Program-made: the position numbers and the translations under genes
Shown: positions 42,130 to 43,169 of the stretch, one piece after another
Position numbering within the stretch: position 1 is the first letter of the stretch
How the letters are laid out: the number at the start of each line of letters is the position of its first letter
Notes under the pieces: generated by a model
What the model saw: the letters and a program-made list of their open reading frames with translations, nothing else
Databases searched by the model: none
Told to the model about the DNA's origin: nothing
Assembly: GCA_020846275.1 (NCBI GenBank)
Contig: JADLEG010000031.1
Coordinates: 10,556 to 74,555 of the forward strand
From: Alphaproteobacteria bacterium
GTDB taxonomy: Bacteria > Pseudomonadota > Alphaproteobacteria > JAEULC01
DNA: 64,000 bases
Reading direction: 5' to 3'

Positions 42130-43005
42130 ATGCCCGAGCTTCCCGAAGTCGAGACCGTCCGCCAGGGGTTGATCCGCTGCATGGTCGGCCACCGCCTGGC
42201 CAAGGTAGACCAGCGCCGCGCCGACCTGCGCTTTCCGCTGCCCCGGGATTTCGCCCGGCGCCTGACCGGCCGCACGGTCACGGCGATCGACCGGCGGGCG
42301 AAATACCTGCTGCTGCATCTCGACGACGGCATGGTGCTGATGATCCATCTCGGCATGTCCGGGCGGATCGTCGTGGGCAGGCGGGGGGGCGTCGGGAACA
42401 AGCTGGGCGAGTTCCACCACGAAACGGTTCGTTCCGATTCCGGGGGCCGGGACGCGCACGATCATGTCGTGTTCACGACCGACCACGGCTTCGTCGTCAC
42501 GTTCAACGATCCTCGCCGCTTCGGCATGATGGATCTCGTTTCCAACAACGCGCTCCACGAACACAAGCTCTTGAAGAGCCTGGGGCCCGAGCCGCTGGAG
42601 GACGCGTTCGACGCCCAGGCGCTGGCGGCGCGGCTCAGGGGCAAGCGCACGCCGATCAAGGCGGCGATCCTGGACCAGAACCTCGTGGTCGGCGTCGGCA
42701 ACATCTACGCCTGCGAAGCCCTGTTCCGCGCGGGCATCTCGCCGCGGCGGCTGGCCGGCACGGTCAAGGGCGAGCGCGCCGAACGCCTGGTCAAGTCGAT
42801 CAAGGACGTGCTGCGCGCGGCGATCAAGGCGGGCGGCTCGTCCTTGCGCGACTATGTCCAGGCCGATGGCGAGCTCGGCTACTTCCAGCACCATTTCCAG
42901 GTCTACGACCGCGAGGGCTCGGCCTGCCCGAAATGCGGGCAGAAGATCAAGCGCCTGGCCCAGGGCGGCCGCTCGACCTTCTATTGTGCGAAGTGCCAGC
43001 GCTAG
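42130..43005 (+). CDS. mutM: formamidopyrimidine-DNA glycosylase
   Basis: MPELPEVE N-terminus and a C-terminal CxxC-N-CxxC zinc finger. Confidence 0.9.
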   Translation: MPELPEVETVRQGLIRCMVGHRLAKVDQRRADLRFPLPRDFARRLTGRTVTAIDRRAKYLLLHLDDGMVLMIHLGMSGRIVVGRRGGVGNKLGEFHHETVRSDSGGRDAHDHVVFTTDHGFVVTFNDPRRFGMMDLVSNNALHEHKLLKSLGPEPLEDAFDAQALAARLRGKRTPIKAAILDQNLVVGVGNIYACEALFRAGISPRRLAGTVKGERAERLVKSIKDVLRAAIKAGGSSLRDYVQADGELGYFQHHFQVYDREGSACPKCGQKIKRLAQGGRSTFYCAKCQR

Positions 43006-43079
43006 TGCCCCGAACCCGAAGTTCGCCTTAGCTTGATCGCAAAACCGGAGGCGAACTTCGGGTTCAAGAGGGGCACTAG
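43002..43079. repeat. palindromic element A at the mutM stop (CTAGTGCCCCGAACCCGAAGTTCGCCT ... AGGCGAACTTCGGGTTCAAGAGGGGCACTAG)
   Basis: About 27 bp arms. Related to the next palindrome 13 bp downstream. Confidence 0.65.
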
Positions 43080-43091
43080 CTCAAAATGTTT

Positions 43092-43169
43092 GCTAGTGTC
43101 CTGATCGATTCCGAAGTTCGCAGCCAGTTCGTCGCAAACACTGACGAACTTCGGAATCGGGACACTAGC
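43092..43169. repeat. palindromic element B (GCTAGTGTCC...CCGAAGTTCG ... CGAACTTCGG...GGACACTAGC) with inner hairpin
   Basis: Shares the CTAGTG(C/T)CC and CCGAAGTTCG modules with element A. Confidence 0.65.

Follow-up and report, generated by a model that had tools for sequence, protein, structure and literature searches.

What are the two large palindromes that separate mutM from the enoyl-CoA hydratase gene (ech) in an alphaproteobacterial contig (JADLEG010000031.1), and how did they come to lie there? A preliminary description of this DNA, a stretch of 64,000 nt at 69% G+C that is referred to here as the window, had pointed out two related palindromes of about 78 bp following mutM, 13 bp apart, the first of which begins inside the mutM stop codon. 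These observations held up on analysis. Hairpin A is 78 nt long (43002-43079, + strand), hairpin B is 76 nt long (43093-43168, - strand), the AT-rich linker between them, CTCAAAATGTTTG, measures 13 nt (43080-43092, + strand), and the CTAG at 43002-43005 contains the TAG with which mutM terminates (43003-43005). We show below that hairpin A, linker and hairpin B (43002-43168) arrived as one insertion, and argue that they very probably constitute a single non-autonomous miniature inverted-repeat transposable element (MITE) derived from the IS630 family (Tc1/mariner superfamily), presumably moved in trans by a DDE transposase.

The state of the locus without the palindromes was found in three relatives, whose MutM proteins are 82-89% identical to that of the window and which share the gene order ubiB-ubiE / mutM-ech-cbtB-cbtA. 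The mutM-ech spacer of these relatives is 34-36 nt long and contains a single CTAG, whereas that of the window is 197 nt long and holds a 159-nt core with CTAG on either side. The empty site of the relatives reads CAGCG-CTAG-G(G/C)TATTAGCGCGC, and the filled site of the window reads CAGCG-CTAG[TGCCCC...GGGACA]CTAG-CGTATTAGCGCGC. The element is missing from five syntenic loci of the three relatives and no hairpins occur at their mutM-ech loci, which contradicts the idea of a plain spacer conserved downstream of mutM. Since the relatives have a single CTAG where the window has CTAG-element-CTAG, hairpin A, linker and hairpin B entered as a single unit, with CTAG on both sides. Therefore, the palindromes are not two tandem elements, as first proposed, but the two ends of one. 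Additional empty sites were not recovered from the syntenic loci L005, L010 and L071, where intergenic DNA was too diverged for alignment.

The mobile element proper is 161 bp long (GTG...CAC; 43005-43165, + strand), comprises hairpin A, linker and hairpin B, and has no counterpart in the relatives. Its CTAG ends are an IS630-type target in which TA is duplicated, regenerated by the terminal G and C of the element; the left copy of the TA lies at 43003-43004 and the right copy at 43166-43167, inside the CTAGs at 43002-43005 and 43165-43168, as judged by comparison with the empty site. Because the element begins with G and ends with C, CTAG was rebuilt on both sides, so that the TAG stop and the MutM protein were left unchanged; accordingly, the C-terminal codons of MutM are the same in the window and the relatives. 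The gene whose stop codon served as the insertion target, and kept it, is mutM (formamidopyrimidine-DNA glycosylase; 42130-43005, + strand; Pfam domains Fapy_DNA_glyco, H2TH and zf-FPG). On the other side, the Shine-Dalgarno sequence of ech, AAGGAG at 43191-43196, was unaltered by the insertion. The ech gene itself occupies 43203-43979 on the + strand, and its ECH_1/ECH_2 domains were called on an identical JGI contig.

A palindrome in a metagenome assembly, which is where the window comes from, could in principle be a chimera made by the assembler, and four Logan short-read contigs with an identical mutM (L121-L124) each end 25-27 nt inside hairpin A. However, the beginning of hairpin A is found in each of the four broken contigs, an independent JGI contig of 100.6 kb has the identical locus, and >200 independent assemblies, isolate genomes among them, share this architecture. 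We therefore attach next to no probability to an assembly artefact. That the four short-read contigs stop within hairpin A indicates instead that the element breaks de Bruijn assemblies and that those samples have the insertion as well.

The sequence of the element is highly repetitive and symmetrical. CTAG occurs at all four hairpin boundaries, and the repeated modules that had been noted earlier recur within it: the window contains four copies of CTAGTGYCC (0.26 expected), all within the element, and the inner module CCGAAGTTCG occurs exactly four times in it. Within the hairpins, the inverted-repeat arms are 100% complementary across 17 nt and 15 nt, with outer stems adding 11-14 nt, while the outermost arms of the whole element (43000-43025 and 43145-43170) are 88% complementary over 26 nt. 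In hairpin A, a 20-nt loop separates a short 5' arm from a 3' arm with a 4-nt bulge (AAGA) adjoining the linker; hairpin B has its bulge (TGAT) in the linker-side arm as well. Minimum free energies of hairpins A and B were -55.4 and -46.2 kcal/mol as RNA, and -31.2 and -26.0 kcal/mol as DNA, with z-scores relative to shuffled sequence of about -9.5 to -10 for RNA and about -8.5 for DNA. A covariance model of the single hairpin unit (R1) matched only hairpins A and B within the window, A best on the + strand (75.5 bits, E = 9e-17) and B best on the - strand (69.5 bits). The two units are thus arranged head-to-head, one forward and one reversed, and not as the direct repeats that the word tandem had implied. 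A suspected degenerate copy at 39350-39380 proved not to be one. CTAG is otherwise scarce in the window, with 24 occurrences compared to ~180 expected from base composition (~7.5-fold fewer), and this single element accounts for four of the 24.

To examine the distribution of the element, we scanned one genome per species for the pattern CTAGTGYCC-N3-20-CCGAAGTTCG. Results showed at least 119 loci, nearly all in Alphaproteobacteria, with carriers among the Xanthobacteraceae/Bradyrhizobium, Afipia, Hyphomicrobium, Devosia, Caulobacter, Phenylobacterium, Parvularculaceae, Magnetospira and Rhodospirillaceae. In the extracted loci, a second hairpin, which ends in CACTAG, and an AT-rich linker of 12-14 nt almost always lie ahead of the matching hairpin. 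The two hairpins are homologous as reverse complements of each other, including their loops (alignments A1 and A2). The composite of hairpin, linker and hairpin was found at >200 loci in Alphaproteobacteria and soil metagenomes, and isolate genomes with this architecture include those of Bradyrhizobium australafricanum, Caulobacter ginsengisoli and a Hyphomicrobium sp. When the 119 listed loci were searched with nhmmer, 253 hairpins were recovered, 222 of them in '+ then -' pairs (111 composites) with a modal gap of 13 nt, the linker length seen in the window; true solo hairpins are present as a minority. At least 120 metagenome contigs, the majority from soil, contain the exact 24-nt arm of hairpin A, and most of these have the composite architecture. 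Other carrier genomes have several loci each, with a further independent block about every 40-45 kb.

The copies of this family also reveal how they are placed. CTAG is present at both ends of 308 of the 331 full-length hairpins. Composites are nested within one another at internal CTAGs (e.g., L241 and L216), and elsewhere they abut with one common CTAG (L052, L027, L109, L148, L158 and L225). Element ends supply the TAG stop of a coding-like open reading frame (ORF) in 24 of 183 cases, compared to four of 366 control frames (P = 6e-9), so that the situation at mutM is typical of the family. Relative to the gene whose stop is overlapped, orientation is unbiased (7 vs. 9). The neighboring genes are unrelated housekeeping genes: across 239 element loci, the only proteins seen repeatedly were members of large families (ABC, SDR, TctC, LysR and others) and of syntenic blocks, and no recurrent companion of the element was found among them.

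Altered forms of the element were seen as well. Derivatives in which both CTAG-proximal ends persist after internal deletion or recombination occur at L169:1164-1212, L211:378-426, L173:1118-1158 and L105:5767-5862; they include a 5' arm and half loop fused to ...CACTAG, and a 96-nt fusion of the 5' half of the first hairpin to the 3' half of the second. Two candidates did not survive scrutiny. L003, in which two pattern matches lie 2.4 kb apart, was considered as a full-length insertion sequence and proved to be two composites around ordinary genes, including one for a PAN-domain protein, with no transposase. Single-arm matches in bins of Acidobacteria, Myxococcota and Dormibacterota (L016, L020 and L045) are best explained as chance, as we estimate that ~10^2 matches to 19 specified bases would arise in 596 Gb.

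The origin of the arms was sought by comparison with plasmids. The whole 165-nt composite had no plasmid match by BLAST at E <= 1e-3. With relaxed settings, one 42-nt arm gave matches at the extreme termini of annotated IS630-family transposase genes in Komagataeibacter, whose proteins have DDE_3 and HTH_32/29/28/23 domains. Twelve independent copies of this IS630 subgroup are 1155-1158 bp long, and all 12 have CTAG at both ends. Their terminal 24 nt are identical to the 3' arm of hairpin B at 20-21 positions and to the 5' arm of hairpin A at 17-18 positions. In the copy on a Bradyrhizobium barranii plasmid, one end, CTAATGTCCCGAGTCACAAGTTCGC, agrees with the 'TCC/CCC' type of arm at up to 22 of 26 positions, and the other, CTAGTGTGGTGGACCAGAAGTTCGCG, agrees with the 'TGG' type at up to 24 of 26. 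Since this copy has two different ends, one for each hairpin type, the two hairpins of the composite correspond to the two ends of the parent. Previous work showed that IS630 and ISY100 insert at TA and duplicate it, that IS630 prefers CTAG, and that the ends are bound via two helix-turn-helix motifs (PMC2170065).

Plasmids of Bradyrhizobium, Nitrobacter, Sinorhizobium, Rhizobium, Methylorubrum and actinomycetes commonly encode homologous transposases, those on actinomycete plasmids being 54-58% identical. The actinomycetotal genome of Fodinicola feengrottensis contains a 167-nt element (L061:4157-4323) with both of the same 24-nt terminal arms around an unrelated 120-nt interior. Together with the actinomycete plasmid transposases, this element suggests that the transposon subgroup crosses phyla. 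On a Pseudonocardia plasmid (L278:~300-365), a further ...GACTCAGGACACTAG end abuts an IS630 copy upstream, with a CTAG in common; this end could belong to an insertion sequence in tandem or to a MITE that is joined to the IS630 copy. In the IS630-family copies L262, L263 and L266-L276, the transposase ORF always ends in the terminal ...CAC-TAG. This stop consists of the flanking (duplicated) TA and the next base of the target, and termination of the transposase thus depends on insertion at CTAG.

A CTAG on both sides of the element and only one in the empty site would also be expected if the whole CTAG were a 4-bp duplication made by a transposase of the IS5 family (IS5/IS427 type), which likewise targets CTAG/YTAR, and elements of that family do enter the CTAGs of these arrays. 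At L159:759-1608, an insertion sequence of ~850 bp with DUF4096 and DDE_Tnp_1 domains (two-ORF IS5/IS427 type) sits at a CTAG within a hairpin array. L162:1661-2252 is a non-coding element of ~590 nt with the ends GGCGTGTACTCATAAAC...GTTTATGAGTACACGGC (GGCGTGTACTCAT ends) and CTAG on both sides, which sits in a composite at the CTAG that separates the linker from the second hairpin; its end sequence also abuts hairpin ends in L097 and L076, and it looks like an IS5-type MITE that landed on these CTAGs. However, the ends of these elements (GGCTGAATCGACATT... and GGCGTGTACTCATAAAC...) are unrelated to the hairpin arms, which match IS630-family ends at 20-24 of 24-26 nt, and we saw no IS5-family element with CTAG-TGYCC...GAAGTTCG termini. 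Mobilization of the element by an IS5-type transposase is thus highly improbable.

The hairpins could also be thought of as functional in their own right. Very stable hairpins immediately after a stop codon, in a possibly co-transcribed gene pair, might have evolved here as a structured RNA or as a regulatory site, such as a 3' stabilizer or attenuator of the mutM mRNA, a small RNA (sRNA), or an array of operators bound by a regulator of ech; REP and Correia elements are known to affect the fate of mRNA. As noted above, the element is missing from syntenic relatives, the same element lies beside unrelated housekeeping genes at hundreds of loci, and its orientation is unbiased. We found no promoter-like or terminator-like site in the element, in line with the earlier remark that neither palindrome has a U-tract, and no ORF fits the 161 bp except from a spurious ATG at 43086. 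Rfam gave no match at the gathering threshold and only meaningless miRNA-hairpin look-alikes at E <= 10. Covariation in the stems was also not that expected of an RNA: 97.7% of the positions are paired and compensatory double changes occur at 21 of 25 pairs, but G-U is nearly absent (~13 cells vs. 309 double changes) and is no better tolerated than other mismatches. An RNA or regulatory function for which the element evolved at this locus has, in our judgment, only a very slight chance of being correct; a secondary effect on mutM-ech transcripts is possible and would then be incidental.

Strictly Watson-Crick covariation would instead suit recognition of the hairpins as DNA. In a scheme like that of REP/BIME elements or REPINs, they would be recognized as folded single-stranded DNA by a domesticated HUH/Y1 transposase (RAYT or IS200-like) cutting CTAG at the hairpin foot, with the linker serving as a site for IHF as in BIME-1/RIP of E. 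coli. The two inverted palindromic units of two subtypes, the short linker between them and the tetranucleotide at every hairpin foot all agree with such a scheme, as does the linker consensus, AATCATARRNTTG, which fits the IHF consensus WATCAANNNNTTR at eight of nine positions; 40 of 68 family linkers reach at least 8/9, compared to 0.8 expected from shuffled linkers. However, the homology of the linker copies reduces the IHF match, in effect, to a single observation (P about 0.01), and the linker of the window reaches at best 7/9, on the opposite strand, or ~6/9 by eye in the register of the consensus (CTCAA aligned to ATCAA). An IHF site in the linker is thus a predicted one and a weak lead. 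Furthermore, IS630-family DDE elements have these arms as their terminal repeats, the units are 76-78 nt rather than 20-40 nt long, and the tag is CTAG rather than GTAG or CGTC (PMC3733652). A crude motif (regex) screen for RAYT over 1.5 Mb of element loci gave no matches, a screen that a single-copy gene would probably escape. Taken together, these data make a REP- or REPIN-like element very unlikely.

We therefore return to the IS630-derived MITE as the best explanation. The element is small and non-coding, has terminal inverted repeats, shows a target duplication with presence and absence among relatives, and shares its ends with autonomous insertion sequences, all of which are features of MITEs; insertion at TA within CTAG with duplication of TA is likewise a property of IS630/Tc1-mariner elements. 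The preliminary description had left the choice between a miniature inverted-repeat element and a protein recognition array. The empty site, the hundreds of copies and the IS630 ends support the former, while an array specific to this locus is not supported. Unbiased orientation, strictly Watson-Crick stems and the lack of an Rfam family are the signature of selfish DNA, and the element is ordinary selfish DNA of a widespread family. Its hairpins are probably a by-product of closely spaced inverted repeat copies and not a functional RNA.

The mechanism that we propose is modeled on IS630 and ISY100, whose type of element moves by cut-and-paste. Each hairpin of 76-78 nt would consist of two inverted IS630-type terminal repeats (CTA-GTGYCC...GAAGTTCG) around a loop of ~20 nt, and the two hairpins, head-to-head about a 13-nt linker, would be placed like the left and right ends of the parent. 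Cut-and-paste transposition into the C-TA-G at the mutM stop would then have duplicated the TA, producing the copies at 43003-43004 and 43166-43167. Judging from the sequence, the conserved arm blocks CTAGTGYSS and GAAGTYCG, with 7 variable nt between them, would fit a bipartite binding site, and transposases are the only proteins expected to bind the arms. Because no transposase homologue was found in the window or the element loci, mobilization would have to occur in trans, and a matching transposase presumably exists, or once existed, in this genome.

Several observations weigh against this derivation. A duplication of TA and a 4-bp duplication of CTAG are indistinguishable by sequence, and only one copy of the element is visible for the window's organism, within 64 kb. 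The BLAST matches to the parent have E values of about 2 when each is taken alone; what lends them weight is that they coincide exactly with both termini in many independent copies. When the IS630 transposase was compared by tblastn to the 64-kb window and 261 element-bearing loci, no match was obtained, a covariance-model search beside 14 insertion-sequence loci produced no convincing hairpins, and none of the loci examined had the MITE together with a matching transposase. Finally, a simple terminal-repeat model does not by itself explain why complementarity within hairpins is near-perfect, even at positions that distinguish A-type from B-type arms, or why the 4-nt bulge and the linker are conserved.

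Maintained pairing could conceivably result from inverted duplication of one end of the insertion sequence, from hairpin-templated repair, or from selection for hairpin formation, and the loop motif GCGGC is conserved as well. A bolder interpretation is that the double hairpin is a selected MITE design. Each IS630 end would have been 'palindromised', with the palindrome kept by selection for a hairpin or cruciform in transposition or by hairpin-templated repair; the linker would serve to attract a host protein, for example IHF, and the CTAG-rebuilding ends would allow TAG stops to be colonized harmlessly. We give this design a small but appreciable chance of being correct. If true, the elements would form a long-lived, class-wide alphaproteobacterial population, more like REPINs than like short-lived MITEs.

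Returning to the IS630-derived MITE, the practical consequence for annotation is that the 167 bp after mutM are a mobile-element insertion and not a terminator, sRNA or operator. In many genomes of Alphaproteobacteria and metagenome-assembled genomes from soil, searches with R1 or with CTAG-GTGYCC...GAAGTTCG arms would flag one such element about every 40-45 kb. With regard to genome dynamics, the element adds CTAG to genomes that avoid it, and the added sites then attract further CTAG-seeking elements. The mutM locus is also a clean example of landing on a stop codon without a change in protein, which is spared because the element ends rebuild the target. While the element opens no new mechanism, it links a very large and little-described IS630 subgroup to its non-autonomous derivatives.

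Two other repeats were observed in the window. The first, TCATCCTGAGGAG...GTCTCGAAGGATGA, has three copies, at 44058-44101 (just downstream of ech), 57896-57939 (inverted) and 57965-58004; it contains a CGTC motif like the CGTC-tagged REPs of Alphaproteobacteria and is presumably the three-copy element mentioned in the preliminary description. The second is a pair of GC-rich hairpins, CCCTCTCCCGCC....GGCGGGAGAGGG, at 58965-58999 and 59449-59483, which are inverted, 449 nt apart and 91% complementary.

In the literature that we searched, neither a description of this family nor its arm sequences were found. Among previously characterized repeats, Br-REP1/2 of Bradyrhizobium and the GTAG/CGTC REPs were considered as the same family and rejected, as their sequences differ. 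Bru-RS1/Bru-RS2 of Brucella and RIME of rhizobia are, like the present element, alphaproteobacterial intergenic palindromic repeats; they measure ~100 bp, and Bru-RS are hot spots for the YTAR-targeting IS711, much as the CTAGs of this family attract IS5/IS427-type elements. Bru-RS and RIME differ from it in size (103-106 bp). Elements derived from IS200/IS605 have subterminal hairpins in the same orientation and no target duplication, whereas the hairpins here are mutually inverted and have CTAG on both sides. The structural parallel with BIME-1/RIP of E. coli and with REPIN-RAYT systems is the pairing of two inverted palindromic units of different subtype about a short linker with an IHF-like consensus, in an intergenic position and often at the 3' ends of genes. 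However, the unit measures 76 nt here and ~35 nt there, the tag is CTAG instead of GTAG, and the element of the window shows site-specific insertion with target duplication and has ends that derive from a DDE transposon rather than a RAYT system.

The Correia elements of Neisseria (CREE/NEMIS) are ~100-155 bp long, have repeats starting TA-TAGTG..., duplicate TA, contain a central IHF-type site and lie near genes. The element of the window resembles them in size, TA target and central AT-rich motif, but its host class and sequence are different, and the terminal repeats of Correia elements are 26 bp long and not palindromic. Correia elements are not known to have a parent insertion sequence, whereas one is evident here. 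The element is a member of neither the Correia nor the BIME-1 group. Also comparable are RUP of Streptococcus pneumoniae, proposed to be mobilized by IS630-Spn1, and Stowaway of plants, which are small non-coding elements with IS630/mariner terminal repeats, TA duplication, many copies and hairpin potential, as is the case here. Their sequences are unrelated, and the present element is distinguished by its composite double hairpin, its four repeat copies and its strict CTAG at four boundaries. Small mobile repeats with IHF sites have been described (PMC2229807). The nearest relatives are members of the IS630 family (Komagataeibacter oboediens pKOB2, WP_275877819.1; Bradyrhizobium barranii pBb1S5a, WP_166107040.1; IS630 and ISY100), which share the termini CTA-GTGTCC...GAAGTT at up to 24 of 26 positions. 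They also have CTAG on both flanks, a TA-in-CTAG target (PMC2170065) and two ends that correspond to the two hairpin types. The ends of these parents are plain, whereas in the 161-bp element of the window, which has no transposase gene, each end is doubled in inverted orientation to yield a hairpin of 76 nt.

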